Shown in pieces: positions 2,374 to 31,779 of a stretch of 31,779 bases of DNA (position 1 is the stretch's first letter; each line of letters starts with the position of its first letter). The notes under the pieces were generated by a model. The model made no database searches, had not been told where the DNA came from, and worked only from the letters and a program-made list of their open reading frames with translations. The position numbers and the translations under genes are program-made. The stretch lies in NCBI GenBank assembly GCA_028697435.1, contig JAQVFD010000001.1, positions 1 to 31,779 of the forward strand, written 5' to 3'. This DNA comes from Clostridiaceae bacterium (GTDB lineage: Bacteria; Bacillota; Clostridia; Lutisporales; Lutisporaceae).

Positions 2374-3906
2374 GTTATCGAATATATTATCTATATAGCA
2401 ATTGCACTAATTACCTTTATTGTAGGGTATTTGGTTAGAAGATATATTGCTGAATCAAAAATAAAAAATGCTGAAGAACAGGCAATAAAGATAGTTTGTG
2501 AAGCCGAAAAGCAATCAGAAACAAAAAAGAAAGAAGTTGTGCTTGAGGCGAAGGAAGAGATTCATAGGCTTAGAACTGAACTGGATAGAGAGACCCGTGA
2601 CAGAAGAAATGAAATCCAGAGAGCCGAAAGAAGATTGCTTCAAAGAGAAGAAAGCCTTGATAAAAAGGTTGAGAGTCTTGAACAAAGAGATGAAGCGATA
2701 ACAAAAAAACAAAAAGAAATACAGAAATCCCTGGAAGAAGTACAGGGTCTGTACAATAAGCAGTTAGAAGAGCTTGAAAGATTATCGGGGTTATCATCAG
2801 AAGATGCAAAACAGTTACTCTTAAACAATATAGAAAAGCAAATAAGGCATGAAGCTGCTATGCTGATCAAGGATATAGAGACCAAGGCTAAAGAAGAAGC
2901 AGAAAGAAAAGCCAAGGAGATCATAGCAAGTTCAATACAGAAGTGTTCTGCAGACCATGTTGCGGAAACTACAGTATCTGTAGTACCACTGCCGAATGAC
3001 GAGATGAAGGGAAGAATAATAGGACGCGAAGGCAGGAATATAAGAACATTAGAAACGCTTACAGGCATCGATTTGATAATCGATGATACACCAGAAGCCG
3101 TAATATTATCCGGTTTTGATCCAATAAGAAGGGAAGTTGCAAGGGTTGCTCTCGAAAAACTAATCGTTGATGGACGAATACATCCTGCCAGAATCGAGGA
3201 AATGGTTGAAAAGGCTAAGAAAGAGGTAGACAACTATATTAAGGAACAAGGTGAACAGGCTACCTTTGATACCGGAGTCCATGGATTGCATCCTGAGATT
3301 ATTAGACTTTTGGGAAGGTTGAGATTTAGAACCAGTTACGGACAAAATGTACTGAAACATTCCGTAGAAGTAGCACACCTTGCGGCAGCAATGGCTGCAG
3401 AGCTTGGTGCCGATGTGAAACTGGCAAAAAGGGCAGGTTTGCTGCATGACATAGGAAAAGCTGTTGATCATGAGGTAGAAGGTCCTCACGTTCAGATTGG
3501 TGCTGACCTTGTAAAGAAATATAAGGAATCCACCGAAATAATCCATGCTGTGGAAGCGCATCATGGAGATATTGAAGCTACAACTGTAGAAGCCGTTCTT
3601 GTTCAAGCAGCTGATGCTATATCTGCTGCAAGACCCGGAGCTAGAAGAGAAACCTTAGAATCATACATTAAACGTTTGGAAAAAATAGAAGAAATAGCTA
3701 ATTCATTTGATGGAGTTGAAAAATCTTTTGCTATTCAAGCCGGCAGGGAAGTCAGAATCATGGTTAAGCCGGAAGATGTAAGTGACAGTGAAATAGTATA
3801 TATCGCCAGAGATATAGTAAAAAAGATCGAGGACGAACTGGAATACCCCGGTCAAATAAAAGTAAATGTTATCAGAGAAACCAGGGCAATTGAATATGCA
3901 AAATAG
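2374..3906 (+). CDS. rny: Ribonuclease Y; the reading frame including the N-terminal membrane anchor is open from 2362, start codon unresolved (see findings)
   Basis: Coiled coil, KH motif [14 protein letters not shown] motif [21 protein letters not shown]-terminal IQAGREVR; in-frame hydrophobic segment [21 protein letters not shown] upstream of the ORF-track start at 2431. Confidence 0.95.
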
Positions 3907-25538: not shown

Positions 25539-25868
25539 CTATTTTCCCCAATATGCCTTTGCCTCAGCCTCAAGTTTGGATAGCCTGGTGTAATAGTCCG
25601 GAAATTCATTCAAATGAGCAAGAGCAATTTTGCCTGTTATTATTGGATCATCTCCTGAAACATTAGTAATGAGGCTTGCACTCCCGTGCTCAAGCTCTGT
25701 GTTGACTCCCATCCAGAATTGGTTTAAATCAAAAGGACTTTTTGAAAAATCAATACCCAGCTTATTTGCTATTTCTGCGGCTTCTTCTTTAGTAAAGCTT
25801 TTTTTTTGACGGTTTACAGCAGGGCAATACATATATGGTAAACAGCAATACTTACCCCAACCTATCAT
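25539..25868 (-). CDS. DUF5661-like small protein with a Cys/Tyr/Pro-rich N-terminus
   Basis: GVNTELEHG, TGKIALAHLNEFPDYYTRL motifs recalled as DUF5661; GAGGTG SD. Confidence 0.7.
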   Translation of the reverse strand: MIGWGKYCCLPYMYCPAVNRQKKSFTKEEAAEIANKLGIDFSKSPFDLNQFWMGVNTELEHGSASLITNVSGDDPIITGKIALAHLNEFPDYYTRLSKLEAEAKAYWGK

Positions 25869-25905
25869 TTACAATCACCTCAGTATTAAAATCATACATT
25901 AGTTC

Positions 25906-25933
25906 ATTCTATGATGTAGTTATTGCGGTGTGC
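25906..25933 (-). promoter_or_regulatory. Candidate sigma-K promoter of the DUF5661-like gene
   Basis: Minus strand gcAC-N16-CATAGAAT matches AC-N16-CATANNNT. Confidence 0.55.
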
Positions 25934-25965
25934 ATGTATTATAAATCGTATTTACAGAGAAACTG

Positions 25966-25993
25966 TTATATTTTTATTTAGCATGCATATCGT
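25966..25993 (+). promoter_or_regulatory. Candidate sigma-E/K-type promoter of the hydrogenase operon
   Basis: TTATATT-N13-CATATCGT, about 40 nt upstream of ATG 26036. Confidence 0.4.
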
Positions 25994-26035
25994 ATATTAT
26001 GTATGTTTTATATGAATGAAATAGGAGAGAAATGT

Positions 26036-26464
26036 ATGATCAAGTCCGAAAAAACAATATGTCAAAGGATGAAACAAATAATAGAGGAGTCTGAAAGCAA
26101 TATTAAAATGCTATTTAAAATGCCGTGTATTTATGCCAGAACATCTGTTTTATTTGAACTGAGTGCTAATACAGCAGAACTGAATGAATTATGCAGTCAA
26201 CTTATAGAGAATGAAAACAGACAGGTTCAGCCAACTCAATCTAATATTACAATAGAGCAACTATCCCAATTTACCGGAAAAAATGGGAATCCTGCTTATG
26301 TCGCAGTGAACGGCATTGTCTATGATGTGACAAATAATGCTGCATGGGCTGCAGCCACACACTTTGGACTAACAGCCGGAAAGGACCTGACGGATGAATT
26401 CGCTTCATGCCATGCCGGACATTCAATTCTTGACAAATTGAAAGTGGTAGGGAAGTTGATATGA
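26036..26464 (+). CDS. Cytochrome b5-like heme/steroid-binding domain protein with an N-terminal helical extension
   Basis: ITIEQLSQFTGKNGNPAYVAVNGIVYDVT, AGKDLTDEF, candidate His ligands in THF and CHAG; AGGAGA SD before ATG 26036; ATGA overlap with the next gene. Confidence 0.85.
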   Translation: MIKSEKTICQRMKQIIEESESNIKMLFKMPCIYARTSVLFELSANTAELNELCSQLIENENRQVQPTQSNITIEQLSQFTGKNGNPAYVAVNGIVYDVTNNAAWAAATHFGLTAGKDLTDEFASCHAGHSILDKLKVVGKLI

Positions 26465-27360
26465 TTGAAAAAAATCCAGGGATATGTCCTATGCTTAATG
26501 CCTCTTCGGGAACCGCTAAAAATCTTATTGAAAAGATAAAGTCGGAAATAATGCGTAATTCCTTGGTCAAGAGAGATTTGATATGGCTTGAGTTGACAGG
26601 CTGTTCAGGAAACATTATTTCACTTTTAAACGGATCAAATCCTGACTTTAAGTTTCTAATAACAAACATGGTAAATCTAATCTATAATAACAGTCTGATG
26701 GCGGCAGAGGGAGAAGCCGCCTTAGATGCACTGGTTAACAAGACCGGATCGGATTATATACTTGCTGTAGAAGGAGCTATTTCAACAAAAAATAATGGTC
26801 TTTATAATATAATCGGCAGATGGAAGGGGGAGCCTCTTACAGCACTTAAGGCTGTTCAACTTTTAGGTGATAGGGCATCTCATGTAATTGCAGTAGGGGC
26901 ATGTGCGACCCATGGCGGAGTATCGGCGGCAAGACCGAATCCTGCAGAATGTGTAAGTGTGCAAAGCATATTAAAAAGAAAAGTAATCAAGCTGCCGGGA
27001 TGCCCATGCCATCCGGATTGGTTCCTGGGAACTCTTGCACACATTCTGCTGTACGGTGAGCCGGAGCTTGATGACAGAGATCGCCATCTGCTCTTCTACA
27101 GTATGCTTATTCATGACAGATGTCCAAGGAGGTCATATTTTGACAATGGCGTTTTTGCTACAAGACTTGGTGAAAAGACCTGTATGTTCAAGCTTGGCTG
27201 CAGGGGTCCCGTTACTCGAATAGATTGCCCAGTAAGACAGTGGAATAGCTATGTCAATTGGCCGATAAGAGATGATACTCCATGTATTGGATGCGCAATG
27301 TTCGGTTTTCCCGATTCAATGGAGCCCTTCATCAGCTATGATACAACAAGAAAGAGGTAG
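26461..27360 (+). CDS. [NiFe]-hydrogenase small subunit, no Tat signal or TM anchor
   Basis: WLELTGCSGNIISLLN, AVEGAI, AVGACATHGG, PGCPCHPDW, IHDRCPRR, CMFKLGCRGP, DCP..WN, PCIGC. Confidence 0.93.
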   Translation: MIEKNPGICPMLNASSGTAKNLIEKIKSEIMRNSLVKRDLIWLELTGCSGNIISLLNGSNPDFKFLITNMVNLIYNNSLMAAEGEAALDALVNKTGSDYILAVEGAISTKNNGLYNIIGRWKGEPLTALKAVQLLGDRASHVIAVGACATHGGVSAARPNPAECVSVQSILKRKVIKLPGCPCHPDWFLGTLAHILLYGEPELDDRDRHLLFYSMLIHDRCPRRSYFDNGVFATRLGEKTCMFKLGCRGPVTRIDCPVRQWNSYVNWPIRDDTPCIGCAMFGFPDSMEPFISYDTTRKR

Positions 27361-27364
27361 AATC

Positions 27365-28746
27365 ATGGCAAAGAGAATAGTAATAAATCCAATAACCCGT
27401 ATCAGCGGATTTATGGAAATAGAAGCTTTCATTGAAAACAATATTATTGTGGATGCAAAAACCGAAGGACTTCTTTTCCGTGGCTTTGAGAAAATGCTGG
27501 TTGGTAGAAGTCCTTTTGATGCGGTGTATTTTACGGAAAGAATCTGCGGTATATGCTCCACGGCTCACGGAGTGGCATCAACAATGGCACTTGAAGCAGC
27601 AATGAAAGTTATACCAACAGAACAAGGCAGATATTTGCGGGATATAATACACGGGTGTGAGTTTCTGCAGAACCATATCCGTCATTTTTACCAATATACT
27701 ACACCGGACTTTATTAAGCTTCCGGAGAACTATCCCTTATATGTTACTGATCATAATGATTTCAGACTTCCTGAAGAAAAAAATGCCCTTCTTGTAAAGC
27801 ATTACTTCGAATCACTTGATTTAAGCCGCCAAGCCCATGAAATGCTGGCAGTACTGGGGGGAAAAGCGCCCCATAATCATGGTGTCTTCATAGGCGGAAT
27901 CACTACACAAGCTTCAACAGACAAGATAATAAAGATAAAATCGATTCTTAATTCCATTAATCAATTTATCCGGGACAAAATGATACCGGATGCATATACA
28001 ATCGGAGAATACTATCAGGACTATTACCATAACGGGGGCGGATACGGAAATCTGCTCAGCTATGGGTGCTTTAACAATTATGCTGAATTGGGAACATTAT
28101 ATGTTGATCCGCTGGCATATAAGGATGGCAGTATCCGACCCTTTTATCCATCAGGTATTTCGGAAGAAATTGACTATTCCTGGTATTCTGATGATACCGA
28201 GCCCTATATGGATAAACCAAAGGCTTATTCCTGGGTAAAGGCTGCACGATACTATGGAATTCCCTTTGAAACAGGCCCATTGGCAAGACAATGGTTAAGC
28301 GGAGAATACAGACATGGGATATCAACCATGGACAGGACTATTGCCAGAGTCCTGGAAGCAAAAAAAATTACTGAGGTAATAGGGGTACTACTCGAAAATA
28401 TTACTCCTGATGTATCGGTGCAAAAGGAATATTCAATTCCCGAAGCAGCAGAGGGGGAGGGTTTGATTGATACGACCAGGGGAGCGTTGGGGCACTGGAT
28501 AGAGATTGATGACCGGGTTATTTCCTTCTATCAGATTATTACGCCTTCCGGATGGAATCTTTCGACACGCAGCGGTAATAACTTAAAGGGTACTGCTGAA
28601 AAGGCCCTGATTGGTACAACAATACAAAATTCTGACAACCCTGTAGAACTGGGAAGGATTATAAGATCTTTTGATCCGTGTGTATCTTGTCAACTCATGT
28701 ATATTCAGATGGTAGGCATATAAAGACATTAAAGGTTGTTCCATGA
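27365..28746 (+). pseudogene. [NiFe]-hydrogenase large subunit with an apparent 1-nt deletion in the L2 motif (as sequenced the ORF ends at 28723)
   Basis: TRISG, RGFE, L1 ERICGICSTAH, RGALGHW, YQIITPSGWN, FDPCVSC; the canonical continuation xTH-VYSDGRHIKTLKVVP* is in the adjacent frame (28693-28746). Confidence 0.85.
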
Positions 28747-29465
28747 AAAGCATACTGGTTATTGGAATCGGCAGTCGGATTATGATGGATGATGCCATAG
28801 GAACACTTGTTGTTGAAGATTTGCAGAAGCATAATAATCCAAATGTCAAATATTTGTCCGGAGAAACCGATGTTGATTACTGCATTGGGGAAATTTCAGA
28901 CTACGAATATGTAGTTGTAATTGATGCTTTTATATCAGGAAAACAACCGGGGGAAATAACAATAGTCCCTTTTAGCCGGCTGAATGCTGAGAAGGAGGAT
29001 TGCTTATATTCCATGCACGGAATGCATTGTCTTAATATGATAAAACATGCTGGAAAAGTTCCAAATGGTACACTCATAGGAATTGAACCCTATGATATTA
29101 ATTTCGGTTCGTCTTTGAGCAATACGCTTAAAAGCTGTTATCCCTGTATTCTAAGAGATGTTCAAAATCACTTGGTAAATATATTAAAAGAACTGGAGGA
29201 AGGAAAAATGCATGATACTTTTTTGTTAAAAAGAATTTCGGATGCTCTCGGTGCCCTATGCAGTACAAACAGGTTTTCAAAAATAACAAAGCTTCAGGTG
29301 ACTACCTGCAAGAATAGTCATATTGAACATGACAACCTTTTTGAACAATTATTAAAGGATCACAATGAATCAGTAGGAGAATGGACAGAAATAATTATAA
29401 TAAGACGGGATATTGAAGATAATACTGCGGTTATTGACAGTGTTGAAGGTGAAACCTTTGAATGA
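28743..29465 (+). CDS. Hydrogenase maturation endopeptidase (about 155 aa) read in frame into a HypA-like domain
   Basis: VIGIGSRIMMDDAIG, VVVIDA, SMHG, LIGIEP; no stop before MHDTFLL at 29208. Confidence 0.85.
   Translation: MKSILVIGIGSRIMMDDAIGTLVVEDLQKHNNPNVKYLSGETDVDYCIGEISDYEYVVVIDAFISGKQPGEITIVPFSRLNAEKEDCLYSMHGMHCLNMIKHAGKVPNGTLIGIEPYDINFGSSLSNTLKSCYPCILRDVQNHLVNILKELEEGKMHDTFLLKRISDALGALCSTNRFSKITKLQVTTCKNSHIEHDNLFEQLLKDHNESVGEWTEIIIIRRDIEDNTAVIDSVEGETFE
29208..29465 (+). CDS. HypA-like protein of 85 aa lacking CxxC zinc motifs (internal start within the fused ORF)
   Basis: Own GGAGG SD at 29195-29199, MHD N-terminus resembling HypA MHE, C-terminal IDSVEGE resembling the HypA terminal strand. 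Confidence 0.55.
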   Translation: MHDTFLLKRISDALGALCSTNRFSKITKLQVTTCKNSHIEHDNLFEQLLKDHNESVGEWTEIIIIRRDIEDNTAVIDSVEGETFE

Positions 29466-31179
29466 AAGCGGATTATTATACTATATTACTGACAGCCGGG
29501 GTACCGTGATCAAATGTGCTGATGCAATAGCAGAAACAGCTGATATTATTAAAGAAGGTAAAATTGTTGCTTTAAAAGGAATCGGTGGTTTTCATCTGTG
29601 CTGTGATGCATTTAATGCTAAAGCTATAGACGAGCTTAGAAAAAGAAAAAACAGGCCCCATAAGCCTTTTGCCCTTATGGCAGCAAATATCGATGTACTT
29701 CGAGACCACTGTACACTTTCAGATAATGAACCGGAACTTCTGACATCTTCCAAAAGGCCTATAGTGCTGCTAAAAAAAAATGAGAACTCCACGCTTCCGG
29801 ATTGCATTGCTCCGGGGCTCAGGCGCCTGGGTGTGATGCTTCCCTATTTTCATCTTCACAATCTGCTTTTTAATAAAGGCTTGGAATTCCTGATAATGAC
29901 CAGCGGGAATGCCGGAGGTGCACCTATTCAATATAAGGATGATGAGGTAATCCTTCATTTAAATGGAGTTGCGGATTTTTTCCTGTTTCATGACCGGAAT
30001 ATTCACAATCCTATTGATGATTCCGTTGTAAAGTTTGCAGCCGGTAAGGAGATGGTAAGCAGAAGGGGTAGGGGTTATATCCCTTTTGACATAAAACTAT
30101 CTGAGTCAGATTCTGTTTTGGCATTGGGAGCAGAAGAAAAAAGCTCAATATGCCTGTCTAAGGCTGGATATGCTTATATTAGCCGGTACCTTGGTGATTT
30201 AAAAGATTTGAACTCATATGACTTATTTATTAAAACTATTGATGATATGACTTCATTGTATCAATTGAAGCCAAAGATATATGCTCATGATTTTCACCCT
30301 CAATATCTGTCTGCCCGGTATGCTATGGAGCAGCAGGGCAGGAGGGTTGCAGTCCAGCATCATCATGCTCATATGGTCAGCTGCATGGTAGAACACAATC
30401 TATATGACAATACCATCGGTGTTATTTTTGATGGTACCGGCTTAGGGAGTGATGGAAGCATATGGGGCGGGGAGTTTTTGTTGGGAAACATAAAAGGTTT
30501 TAAGCGGATCGGGCATCTGAAACCCGTAATACTTCAAGGAGGAGACAAGGCGATCAAAGAACCATGGCGATGTGCTGCAGCCTACTTATATAGCTTGGGT
30601 TATGAGCCTGAGGATTACCTGGAACAAGAAAAAATACCTGATATAACAGTTATTAAGCAGGCGCTGGCTTCAAATCTTAATTGCTATCTGTCTACCAGTA
30701 TGGGCAGGCTCTTTGACTGTGCAGCAGCGCTTATCGGTTTAAGGCAAGTTATTACCTATGATGCACAAGGAGCTATCGAATTGGAGAATATTGCGGTTTC
30801 GGGTATTGATGATCAAAGTTACTCTTACAGTATATATGAAAATAATAATGATTTATTAGAGCTTGATTATAGGGGTATCATTTCGGATTTACTTATAGAC
30901 AAAAAATACGGAACATCAGCTTCAATAATGTCTGCAAGATTTCACAATACAATTTCCGAATCAACTGTTGACATGCTTTTAAAACTTAGAAATAAGTATC
31001 ATATAAATCAAATTGTTCTAAGCGGTGGGGTTTTTGAAAATACGTATCTGTTGGAATCGGCTTATCAGAAACTTAAAAAAGAAGGCTTCAGTGTATATTT
31101 CAACGGGCAGATACCTATTAATGACAGCGGTATTTCTGTAGGGCAATTAGCTATAGCAAATGAATACCTAGGAGGATAA
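29462..31179 (+). pseudogene. hypF: Carbamoyltransferase HypF lacking the acylphosphatase and zinc-finger domains; coupled ATG is out of frame
   Basis: Begins just before KGIGGFHLCCDA (YrdC-like domain); MTSGN, DDSVV, HDFHPQYLS, VQHHHAH, FDGTGLGSDGSIWGGE, STSMGRLFD, SGGVFEN, PINDSGISVGQ present; no GxVQGVGFR or CxxC motifs. Confidence 0.85.
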
Positions 31180-31183
31180 AAAC

Positions 31184-31420
31184 ATGTGTCTCGCAGTACC
31201 CGGAAGAATTGTGTCCATTGATGGGATTTGGGCACAAGCAGAGATTATGGGAGTGCTAAGTACTGTAAATATCCAGCTCATACATAATCCGACTATTGAA
31301 GATTGCATATTGATCCATACAGGTTGTGCAATACAGAAGATAAGCATTGAAAATGCTTTGTATTTGCAGGAACTCTTATCGGAACTAAATATTGAGGATG
31401 ATATTAATGGATACAGTTAG
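31184..31420 (+). CDS. hypC: Hydrogenase assembly chaperone HypC/HupF
   Basis: MCLAVPGRIV N-terminus, LIHTGCAI. Confidence 0.93.
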   Translation: MCLAVPGRIVSIDGIWAQAEIMGVLSTVNIQLIHNPTIEDCILIHTGCAIQKISIENALYLQELLSELNIEDDINGYS

Positions 31421-31779
31421 TATAGCAAGAAAGCTGATTAATAAAATAAGTATATACTGTGAAGAAGAACTAAGCTTTATGGAGGTGTGCGGGACCCACA
31501 CCCACGAAATCTCGCGGTCAGGAATCAGAAGTATGCTGCCGCAAAACCTTACACTTCTTTCAGGACCCGGATGCCCTGTATGCGTAACCGATGAAGGCAT
31601 TATAGATACTGCGATTGAAATTCTAAGTTATAATGATGTGATCTTAGCAACTTTTGGTGATATGGTACGGGTCAGAGGGACTCACGAAAGCATTTGGGAT
31701 CAGCTGGATAAACGAAAAAATATTGTTATAGTATATTCACCTTTGGATTGTCTTGAGATTGCAAAAAATAATCCGGAAA
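31407..31779 (+). CDS. hypD: Hydrogenase formation protein HypD, N-terminal part (runs off the window; not in the ORF track)
   Basis: Frame from ATG 31407 is open to the edge and reads FMEVCGTHTH, SGPGCPVCVT, TFGDMVRV, VYSPLD. Confidence 0.93.
   Translation, partial: MDTVSIARKLINKISIYCEEELSFMEVCGTHTHEISRSGIRSMLPQNLTLLSGPGCPVCVTDEGIIDTAIEILSYNDVILATFGDMVRVRGTHESIWDQLDKRKNIVIVYSPLDCLEIAKNNPE

Follow-up and report, generated by a model that had tools for sequence, protein, structure and literature searches.

A [NiFe]-hydrogenase operon in a Clostridiaceae bacterium raises two questions: with which partner does the enzyme exchange electrons, and at which stage of the life cycle is it made? We analyzed the 31,779 nucleotides of contig JAQVFD010000001.1 (hereafter the window), for which an initial annotation had proposed a cytoplasmic hydrogenase with a soluble heme protein as partner, expressed during sporulation. 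The hydrogenase lineage itself is already known; the new parts are the conservation of its promoter and the near-universal linkage to a cytochrome-b5-like gene.

A cytoplasmic hydrogenase module with its own maturation set

Positions 25539-31779 hold a real [NiFe]-hydrogenase operon, in which Pfam and NCBIfam models confirmed every named gene in place, in the order b5-like protein, small subunit, large subunit, protease/HypA-like fusion, HypF, HypC and HypD, all on the forward strand. The gene identities of the initial annotation therefore stand, except that it had listed the protease and the HypA-like protein as separate genes, which form one frame here.

The small subunit (26461..27360, 299 aa) carries the Pfam domains Oxidored_q6 and NiFe_hyd_SSU_C and scores above the cut-off of TIGR00391. 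As assembled, the large-subunit gene (Pfam NiFeSe_Hases) runs from 27365 to 28723 and reads 452 aa because one G is missing after 28690, which leaves a frameshifted tail without the DPCxxCxxH end. All contigs from four independent runs carry the extra G, which restores DPCVSCATH and the tail, yielding a protein of 460 aa (27365..28746), the length also found in relatives, with a stop codon that overlaps the protease ATG. The frameshift is an assembly error, and decay of the large subunit is ruled out. That the cluster as a whole is decaying, as the frameshift, a HypF lacking two domains and the fused protease might suggest, is highly improbable: both subunits are 62-95% identical to family members and keep all metal ligands, and the truncated HypF recurs in two relatives (L090 and L091) and on the Clostridium acetobutylicum plasmid pSOL1. 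The N-terminal motif RxCGxCxxxH of the large subunit, here RICGICSTAH, is invariant in 34 sequences. In the family alignment of the small subunit, H218, C221, C241, C247, C256, C275 and C278 are invariant, the distal His-x2-Cys ligands included, and the proximal site lacks the first Cys of its usual CxxC pair (ELTGCSGN).

The closest solved large-subunit structures belong to the periplasmic Group 1a [NiFe]/[NiFeSe] uptake hydrogenases of Desulfovibrio (PDB 5JSU and 1CC1, E 5e-91), whose small subunit has the same two domains as that of the window. HydDB puts clostridial homologues in Group 1a, and the pSOL1 homologue is quoted as a Group 1a reference (PMC9431212). By sequence, the enzyme would thus belong to a clostridial, Group-1a-like lineage, with the subgroup taken from the nearest structures and the HydDB placing of the homologue. 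The Desulfovibrio enzymes are Tat-exported and reduce periplasmic cytochrome c3, whereas the window enzyme has no signal peptide and its b5-type partner is cytoplasmic; its large subunit is also shorter (460 aa) and has no selenocysteine codon.

The proposed lack of a Tat signal, a membrane anchor and a cytochrome b subunit was borne out by motif, hydropathy and domain checks. Neither an RRxF motif nor a hydrophobic 19-mer above 1.4 (Kyte-Doolittle) occurs in the DUF5661, b5-like, small-subunit, large-subunit and protease fusion proteins of the window. A twin-arginine motif is found in none of the 34 family small subunits, hydropathy gives no C-terminal anchor for the small subunit, and the operon contains no cytochrome b or c3 gene, with a cytb5M-type protein in that place. 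Acetogen enzymes likewise lack a twin-arginine signal (PMC9431212).

Downstream of the large subunit, a HycI-type maturation protease (Pfam HycI, TIGR00072), extending to about 29207, is fused in frame to a HypA-like unit (28743..29465). This single open frame shows no indels across four independent metagenome assemblies, whereas in the relatives L090 and L094 the two genes are separate and overlapping. The HypA-like unit (29208-29465, 85 aa) starts with MHD; M1, H2 and D3, corresponding to the N-terminal M-H-E/D nickel site, are invariant in 23 sequences. Pfam HypA gives weak matches to 20 of these 23 family members (best E 2e-4). The unit has no CxxC at all, so that the zinc site formed by two CxxC pairs is absent. 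HypB was looked for and not found; together with the missing zinc site, this points to unconventional nickel delivery.

The HypF carbamoyltransferase is N-truncated (about 573 aa from a TTG at 29458, about 29458-31179). Pfam finds only Sua5_yciO_yrdC, HypF_C and HypF_C_2, with neither the acylphosphatase nor the zinc-finger domains, and the alignment to TIGR00143 covers model positions 187-739 of 741. Relatives have HypF proteins of 573-576 aa, except L094 with the full 754-aa form. HypC (31184-31420, Pfam HupF_HypC) follows, and HypD (31392-31779, Pfam HypD) is cut by the contig end. It continues on an overlapping contig of the same assembly, which encodes full-length HypD (361 aa) and HypE (425 bits), followed by a CDF transporter gene. 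As judged from its genes, the region shows a complete, predicted cytoplasmic [NiFe]-hydrogenase module, a heterodimer without export signal or membrane anchor, with its own maturation set including HypE.

A b5-type protein gene is near-universally linked to the hydrogenase

The first gene of the operon encodes a soluble b5-type protein of 142 aa (26036..26464, Pfam Cyt-b5). Across other Bacillota genomes, a b5-like gene adjoins the hydrogenase genes in about 70 of 72 loci, lying directly upstream of the small- and large-subunit genes in nearly all of the 72 and in all 13 other matches with the gene order of the window. The hydrogenase of spore-forming Firmicutes is thus near-universally linked to a gene for a cytochrome-b5-like protein, in agreement with the view that the b5-type protein is encoded by a constant partner gene.

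The protein combines an N-terminal helical hairpin (residues 2-62) with a cytb5M/MAPR-like domain (residues 69-142). It matches PDB 6NZX (E 5e-18) and 6VZ6 (E 1e-14) in sequence, and its predicted structure (pLDDT 85) gave Foldseek TM scores of 0.81 and 0.84 to these, respectively. Both cytochrome b5M (MAPR-like) proteins have the same fold, are 35-45% identical to the window protein, and have bis-His ligands that are kept here; they are, however, single domains of 76-78 aa without a known partner, whereas the window protein adds a 60-residue hairpin and a gene locked to a hydrogenase. His109, Cys125 and His126 are invariant, the His pair across 34 sequences. His109 aligns with axial ligand H42 of heme-bound 6NZX/6VZ6, and His126 lies one alignment column from H61. 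These conserved ligands make heme binding plausible.

In the complex model, the b5-type protein and the hydrogenase scored 0.38, against 0.01 for the best control. For comparison, 58 of 80 solved complexes and 2 of 110 mismatched pairs passed the mark; at scores of 0.60 or below, only 7 of the 80 solved complexes did so, along with both passing mismatches. In the modelled interface, b5 residues 81-84 and 100-111, surrounding His109, contact small-subunit residues 218, 243-251 and 274-298 of the distal cluster region, which lends weak support to docking of the b5-type protein at the distal Fe-S cluster. The b5-type protein may then be the dedicated redox partner of the enzyme, its bis-His heme pocket facing the distal [4Fe-4S] cluster of the small subunit, and could pass H2-derived electrons on to a soluble acceptor or supply electrons for H2 evolution.

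The partner gene and the axial histidines are in keeping with the proposed soluble heme protein, but searches of five cluster-carrying genomes, two of them about 100% complete, turned up neither ferrochelatase nor siroheme decarboxylase. The same heme-synthesis problem has been remarked on in acetogens (PMC9431212). The b5-like protein might instead be an assembly or metal-delivery factor or bind another ligand, as MAPR relatives do, with the hydrogenase donating to an acceptor such as ferredoxin or flavodoxin. The unconventional nickel delivery and the invariant Cys125 beside His126 would fit such a role, which we nevertheless consider unlikely: both histidines are invariant across sequences that include Bacilli, the gene adjoins those of the two subunits and not the hyp genes, and the model places the contact at the distal cluster instead of on the subunit with the active site. 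Bacilli are expected to make heme.

A conserved candidate promoter precedes the operon

The gap between the divergent DUF5661 gene and the b5-like gene is exactly 167 bp and contains a single conserved island (25962..26009, forward strand). Alignment defines this block as a candidate promoter with a -35 element TTATATT (25966-25972), a 13-nt spacer, a -10 element CATATCGT (25986-25993) and then TATTATGTATG; 60% of its columns are invariant across five lineages, compared with 12% and 8% in the flanks. It is followed by the Shine-Dalgarno sequence AGGAGAG of the b5-like gene (26023..26029), of which GGAGAG is invariant in relatives. The sigma-E/K-like motif proposed upstream of the b5 gene is thus present and conserved.

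CATATCGT has the CATA-N3-T form of the -10 box, which is conserved in relatives and sister clades. The -35 element is of the ATA type ascribed to sigma-E in the window (TTATATT, spacer 13), L090 (TAATAAT, spacer 14) and L094 (TAATATT, spacer 13); the textbook spacer for sigma-E is 14 nt. The AC of a sigma-K -35 element is absent at 16-17 nt in the window, the nearest AC lying 22 nt upstream. When loci were anchored on CATA, 13 from sister clades, in at least nine sequence clusters, showed the sigma-K-type arrangement GTAAC-N16/17-CATAnnnT (GCATAnnnTA), and eight, including the window, showed ATA-N14-16-CATAT. This division parallels the description of sigma-E and sigma-K promoters as differing in the -35 element (ATA and AC, respectively) with a common -10 (PMC3789822). 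Resting on these motifs, the operon appears to sit behind a candidate promoter of sigma-E (mother-cell) type.

The search upstream of orthologs was only partly favourable. Among b5-first loci, 23 of 45 carry the motif in sense, against 2.3 on average and at most 7 in shuffled sequences, with a high antisense control (12/45); the other 22 lack a recognisable motif. Loci with the order protease-hyp-b5 carry a different conserved upstream sequence, readable as sigma-A TTTTCA-16-TATATT. A second conserved element, GAATAT, is found at -40 to -46 in most loci outside the clade of the window. Within this genome, which encodes SpoIVA, the strict motif has only 12 matches among 1182 upstream regions (antisense control, 8), and among the genes concerned are spoIIM, yunB and one for a triple-LysM protein. 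A sigma-70 scan of the gap returned 10 matches where 6.2 +/- 2.7 were expected; these are at chance level and none is conserved, which agrees with the earlier observation that the gap has no clear sigma-A promoter.

The DUF5661 gene (25539..25868, reverse strand, 109 aa; Pfam PF18905, E 5e-21) had been assigned a back-to-back sigma-K-like promoter. A candidate found by scan and alignment (25906..25934, reverse strand) reads as AC-N16-CATAGAAT, which is sigma-K-like, or as TGCACA-17-TAGAAT, a weak sigma-A-like promoter that the sigma-70 scan scores 9 of 12. L097, L090 and L091 share the TGCAC and CATAGAAT boxes. The motif is therefore real, but its assignment is ambiguous, as both readings fit equally well, and the gene lies beside the hydrogenase only in close relatives of the window (L091, L092, L093 and L097; absent in L094).

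Expression of orthologous operons

As the initial annotation stated, pSOL1 carries a similar cluster with a b5 gene inside the hydrogenase operon. Its genes CA_P0141-0146 (mbhS/mbhL or hupSL) encode a Tat-less small subunit like that of the window, a large subunit 49% identical to that of the window, and likewise a protease, a 143-aa cytochrome b5 domain protein, an 86-aa HypA-like protein and a truncated HypF-like Sua5/YrdC protein. The operon differs in being plasmid-borne, in its order SSU-LSU-protease-b5, with b5 not first, in its separate rather than fused protease and HypA-like genes, and in an upstream region that, unlike that of the window, fits the sigma-E/K consensus poorly.

The pSOL1 operon is expressed in the mid to late stationary phase of sporulating cultures. 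In arrays of a sporulating batch culture, CAP0141-6 switched on sharply at hour 26, with sigma-E activity going up after hour 24 (PMC2530871); the operon was not expressed in three chemostat states (PMC4669385). The [NiFe] cluster of C. beijerinckii is highest in stationary phase (PMC6362236). This timing favours the proposed developmental expression, but mbhS/L expression is higher in the asporogenous C. acetobutylicum EA 2018 than in ATCC 824 (PMC3044671), which argues against strict dependence on a sporulation sigma factor.

The operon and its b5 gene could be just as described and yet answer to a general stationary-phase, redox or H2/nickel response, through sigma-A with an activator or another sigma factor, the boxes being an AT-rich look-alike or a regulator site; we regard this as possible, though a minority prospect. 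Besides EA 2018, the induction of the pSOL1 operon in biofilm cells, the high antisense motif counts, the sigma-A-like sequence of loci with the other gene order, the widely conserved GAATAT element, which hints at a further regulator, and a TATATT just downstream of the CATA box, a potential sigma-A -10, all speak for it. Against it, no usable sigma-A -35 element lies 16-18 nt from that TATATT, whether in the window or in loci of the GTAAC type; conservation falls exactly on the sigma-E/sigma-K contacts (ATA or AC, and CATA); spoIIM and yunB of this genome are preceded by the same strict motif; and steady-state cultures show the operon silent.

Discussion

The best explanation of these observations, which we hold with about even confidence, is a cytoplasmic [NiFe] module with a b5-type partner that lies behind a sigma-E-type promoter and is made in the mother cell. 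Transcription would start from the conserved promoter, whose CATAT... -10 and ATA -35, 18 nt upstream, fit sigma-E; sister clades would use the same -10 with a sigma-K-type -35 (AC, 16-17 nt spacer). Given this conserved sigma-E/sigma-K-type promoter, synthesis in the mother cell at mid to late sporulation is the most likely reading, and the hydrogenase would not be made in vegetative fermentative growth, when H2 is left to [FeFe] enzymes. Redox balance, consumption of H2 that the cell itself produces, or shielding of the developing spore would be its candidate roles.

A precedent is the [FeFe]-hydrogenase CD3258 of C. difficile, whose mapped sigma-E promoter places it under mother-cell control during sporulation (PMC3789822). 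CD3258 is of another enzyme class and lacks a b5 partner, and its sigma-E dependence is experimental whereas that of the window operon is motif-based.

Collectively, these findings suggest that H2 metabolism may be part of the sporulation programme. We more tentatively raise the possibility, against which we would still wager, that the Bacillota-wide lineage and its cytb5M subunit are dedicated to sporulation: produced in the mother cell through sigma-E or sigma-K, the enzyme would oxidise H2, or dispose of reductant, and so power or protect late spore assembly. The hydrogenase might also be carried into the spore. If true, it would be the endospore-former counterpart of the dormancy-supporting hydrogenases of Streptomyces spores and mycobacteria.

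Gene content of the hydrogenase operon and its host

The window constitutes the entire contig C130 of a metagenome-assembled genome (2.13 Mb in 309 contigs, 83% complete), with Pseudobacteroides, Petroclostridium and Ruminiclostridium as named relatives within its clostridial order. The organism was found repeatedly in metagenomes from landfill, sediment, groundwater, wastewater and digesters, and two sequencing runs that may be of RNA include small stretches of this region. Its genome encodes SpoIVA, SpoIIM and YunB, and the host is therefore an endospore former.

Using Pfam and NCBIfam, we identified a DUF5661 gene on the minus strand (25539-25868) and, on the plus strand, genes for a 142-aa Cyt-b5-domain protein (b5-type protein, 26036-26464), the small subunit (SSU, 26461-27360) and large subunit (LSU, from 27365) of a [NiFe]-hydrogenase and a HycI-type protease (from 28743). 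These are followed by an 85-aa HypA-like unit starting MHD (29208-29465), HypF (from a TTG codon at 29458), HypC and, at the window end, the 5' part of hypD. The start of the b5 gene is set by a ribosome-binding site, AGGAGAG, 6 nt upstream, so that the gap between the divergent DUF5661 and b5 genes measures exactly 167 bp. Neighbouring operon genes overlap or stand a few bases apart, a tight coupling. Contig C260, which overlaps the window end, bears full-length hypD and hypE and, 310 nt 3' of hypE, a CDF-family cation efflux gene (2389-3276 of locus L118).

The gene series proposed in the initial annotation (b5-like gene, both subunits, protease, HypA-like gene, hypF, hypC and hypD) is thus present, with three corrections. 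The protease and HypA-like sequences form a single reading frame rather than two genes, with no indel at their junction in four independent assemblies; among close relatives they are separate overlapping genes in L090 and L094 and fused again in L091. In the HypA-like unit, M1, H2 and D3 are invariant, the CxxC pair is absent and Pfam HypA matches 20 of 23 members, making its identity a weak but consistent call. HypF is present but lacks the acylphosphatase and zinc-finger domains, as it does in L090, L091 and the C. acetobutylicum plasmid pSOL1, but not in L094. No canonical HypB was matched in the 83% complete host assembly.

As assembled, the LSU ends DPCVSCQLM... and misses the final His. 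In four metagenome runs, each from a different study, all contigs have one more G after 28690; with this base the LSU ends in DPCVSCATH and a tail of 15 residues, and its stop codon overlaps the protease ATG. The restored end agrees with 460-aa relatives and with the motif quoted for clostridial enzymes (PMC6362236). What looks like a frameshift is an error in the assembly consensus, and the frame-restoring G in four independent runs rules out a decaying pseudogene.

Location and class of the hydrogenase

No twin-arginine motif was found in the five window proteins checked (DUF5661, b5, SSU, LSU and the protease fusion), nor any hydrophobic 19-mer with a Kyte-Doolittle value above 1.4. The 34 small subunits that were aligned all have a short CPEY-type N-terminus and no C-terminal anchor, which upholds the earlier claim that the enzyme has neither Tat signal nor membrane anchor. 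The pSOL1 and acetogen homologues have been classed as Group 1a with the Tat signal missing, and a cytochrome b5 gene has been noted in three species (PMC9431212). The closest solved LSU structures are periplasmic [NiFeSe] and [NiFe] Group 1 enzymes.

Several subunit peculiarities were also observed. Group 1 small subunits have a CxxC pair where this SSU family (26461-27360 and the alignment) reads ELTGCSGN with one Cys; the family also has GCPCHP with an extra Cys, a pattern that hints at an unusually ligated proximal cluster. The SSU gene of a Candidatus Fimivivens metagenome-assembled genome (L043, 9417-10301) contains an in-frame stop codon. In L006 (genome G007) and L085, two relatives, a short remnant 3' of the b5 gene joins SSU residues 9-68 to LSU residues 396-442 and a DUF5661 gene adjoins it; the hydrogenase is internally deleted in both.

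Linkage, fold and predicted docking of the b5-type protein

The b5-type protein has more than 1200 homologues. Judged only where the contig extends far enough to show the neighbours, its gene lies directly 5' of the SSU and LSU genes in nearly every case, at 72 loci of species-representative genomes from Clostridia and Bacilli, including Paenibacillus, Brevibacillus, Laceyella and Ammoniphilus. All 13 other matches in the host's own order, short forms without the N-terminal half included, are again encoded directly 5' of the SSU and LSU genes. Two gene orders, b5-SSU-LSU-protease-hyp and protease-hypA'-hypFCDE-b5-SSU-LSU, were seen, and a third, SSU-LSU-protease-b5, in pSOL1 and L089. This near-universal linkage across 72 Bacillota loci bears out the proposal that a soluble b5-type gene belongs to the operon, and a cytoplasmic hydrogenase with a soluble b5-type partner is, as gene content, well supported.

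The structural model of the protein (pLDDT 85) has a pair of long antiparallel helices (residues 2-62), joined by a linker to a b5 domain that superposes on cytb5M structures from archaea, 6NZX and 6VZ6 (TM 0.81-0.84). In both structures heme is held by H42 and H61; in the profile alignment invariant His109 falls on H42 and invariant His126 one column from H61.

A three-chain model of SSU, LSU and b5 scored 0.38 against 0.01 for the best control; in our complex modelling, 58 of 80 solved complexes reached the mark, as against 2 of 110 mismatched pairs, and at scores up to 0.60 only 7 of the 80 passed, as did both passing mismatches. In the model, the b5 residues on either side of His109 (81-84 and 100-111) touch SSU residues 218, 243-251 and 274-298, which surround the ligands of the distal cluster, H218 and C247. 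The model weakly supports the predicted docking of b5 at the SSU distal cluster, with the geometry that electron transfer from this cluster to b5 would require, and a physical complex of hydrogenase and b5 is plausible.

Neither ferrochelatase (PF00762) nor siroheme decarboxylase (PF17805) was matched in five cluster-carrying genomes (the host, G000, and G007, G011, G014 and G033), two of them about 100% complete, and positive controls were matched. The protein would hold either scavenged heme or a different cofactor.

A conserved putative mother-cell-type promoter

When the gap was aligned with that of relatives whose b5 proteins are 73-99% identical, an island at 25962-26009 had 60% invariant columns, against 12% and 8% in the flanking stretches. 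It consists of TTATATT, a 13-nt spacer, CATATCGT and then TATTATGTATG, and is kept in L094 even though the DUF5661 gene is lost there and the upstream sequence is unrelated. Distant orthologues were aligned by anchoring on the CATA box, the -10 element of sigma-E and sigma-K promoters. Thirteen loci in at least nine sequence clusters have (A)GTAAC, a 16-17 nt spacer and GCATAnnnTA, followed in most by TATTATGT, while the window's clade and L022, L027 and L037 have ATA 17-19 nt 5' of the same -10. Sigma-E and sigma-K promoters in the mapped regulons of C. difficile have this -10 in common and differ in the -35, ATA versus AC (PMC3789822). Conservation of the CATA box upstream of orthologues, a check proposed in the initial annotation, was therefore found both in the gap alignment and among the anchored distant loci.

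The motif of either type occurs in the sense direction at 23 of 45 b5-first loci, compared with a shuffled mean of 2.3 (maximum 7) and 12 antisense matches, part of which may be divergent promoters. In the host genome, the strict sigma-E pattern was found in 12 of 1182 upstream regions in sense versus 8 in antisense, a modest enrichment. Among the remaining eleven are spoIIM, yunB, two UppS genes and the genes of a triple-LysM protein and an HtrA-type protease, indicating that the motif finds mother-cell genes in this host.

Sigma-70-like matches in the gap were at chance level and not conserved, in line with the earlier statement that no clear sigma-A promoter is present. Inspected by eye, the conserved block also did not fit sigma-F or sigma-G, GCATG being unconserved and a matching -10 lacking. 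Rfam returned nothing meaningful for an RNA element in the gap.

On the DUF5661 side, the conserved boxes TGCAC and CATAGAAT can be read as AC-N16-CATAnnnT or as a weak sigma-A site; the sigma-K-like promoter proposed for this gene is compatible with these boxes but not singled out by them. A literature search for DUF5661 gave no paper and no function, and its link to the hydrogenase is local.

Eight protease-first loci (L033, L038, L042, L050, L052, L054, L058 and L085) share TTTTCATACC-N8-GCATATATATTTAGTG 5' of the protease gene. This sequence has a CATAT box without properly spaced ATA or AC, is readable as sigma-A-like and differs from the conserved region of b5-first loci. A further element, GAATAT(A), stands 40-46 nt 5' of the b5 start codon at 54 of 73 orthologous loci (L018-L089), in both gene orders and in Clostridia and Bacilli, but the window's own clade lacks it. 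Where hypE precedes b5, CTCCTTCGG lies ahead of the element and, judged by eye, could base-pair with the Shine-Dalgarno region. Inspected in the same way, GAATAT gave no convincing match to GerE, Spo0A or sigma-H sites.

Expression of orthologues and sporulation

SpoIVA is so widespread in a phylum sample (327 of 401 genomes) that its presence in all 11 of the strongest b5 carriers, with a chance expectation of about 0.1, says nothing on a link between the b5 gene and sporulation capacity; weaker b5-domain matches also occur in genomes without SpoIVA. In a sporulating batch culture of C. acetobutylicum, CAP0141-6 rose sharply at hour 26 and stayed on until hour 54, and the major rise in sigma-E activity came after hour 24 (PMC2530871). 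One gene of the series, CAP0144, bears the annotation possible steroid binding protein (PMC2530871); we identified it as the b5 gene, confirming the b5-associated pSOL1 cluster noted earlier. Neither transcripts nor proteins of this operon were detected in three chemostat states (PMC4669385), and expression of the C. beijerinckii cluster is highest in stationary phase (PMC6362236).

Strict dependence on sporulation is, however, opposed by the asporogenous strain EA 2018, which expresses mbhS/L more strongly (PMC3044671), and by the published induction of the pSOL1 operon in biofilm cells. The pSOL1 upstream region fits the sigma-E/K consensus poorly, and we found nothing on this enzyme in the spore-proteome literature. 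Convergent with the end of the pSOL1 operon is a DUF421 gene (L117, 7441-8106), of a family that includes spore inner-membrane proteins. Collectively, the comparison of upstream regions suggests that the hydrogenase operon lies behind a mother-cell-type promoter, a reading consistent with the timing data.

Discussion

For more than 10 years, [NiFe]-hydrogenases of clostridia and bacilli that lack an export signal have been on record, usually filed as periplasmic uptake enzymes; to our knowledge, they have no assigned partner, role or regulation. The lineage itself is thus already catalogued, and our additions are its near-universal linkage to b5, the geometry of the docking, the conserved promoters of sigma-E/K type and the problem of heme supply. 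Two testable handles emerge, a near-constant cytb5M-type protein with predicted distal-cluster docking and a conserved mother-cell-type promoter. If both hold true, H2 metabolism would belong to the programme of endospore development in many anaerobes and aerobes, and the MAPR-like b5 family would gain its first prokaryotic function. It would also account for the silence of these enzymes in steady-state metabolic-engineering cultures.
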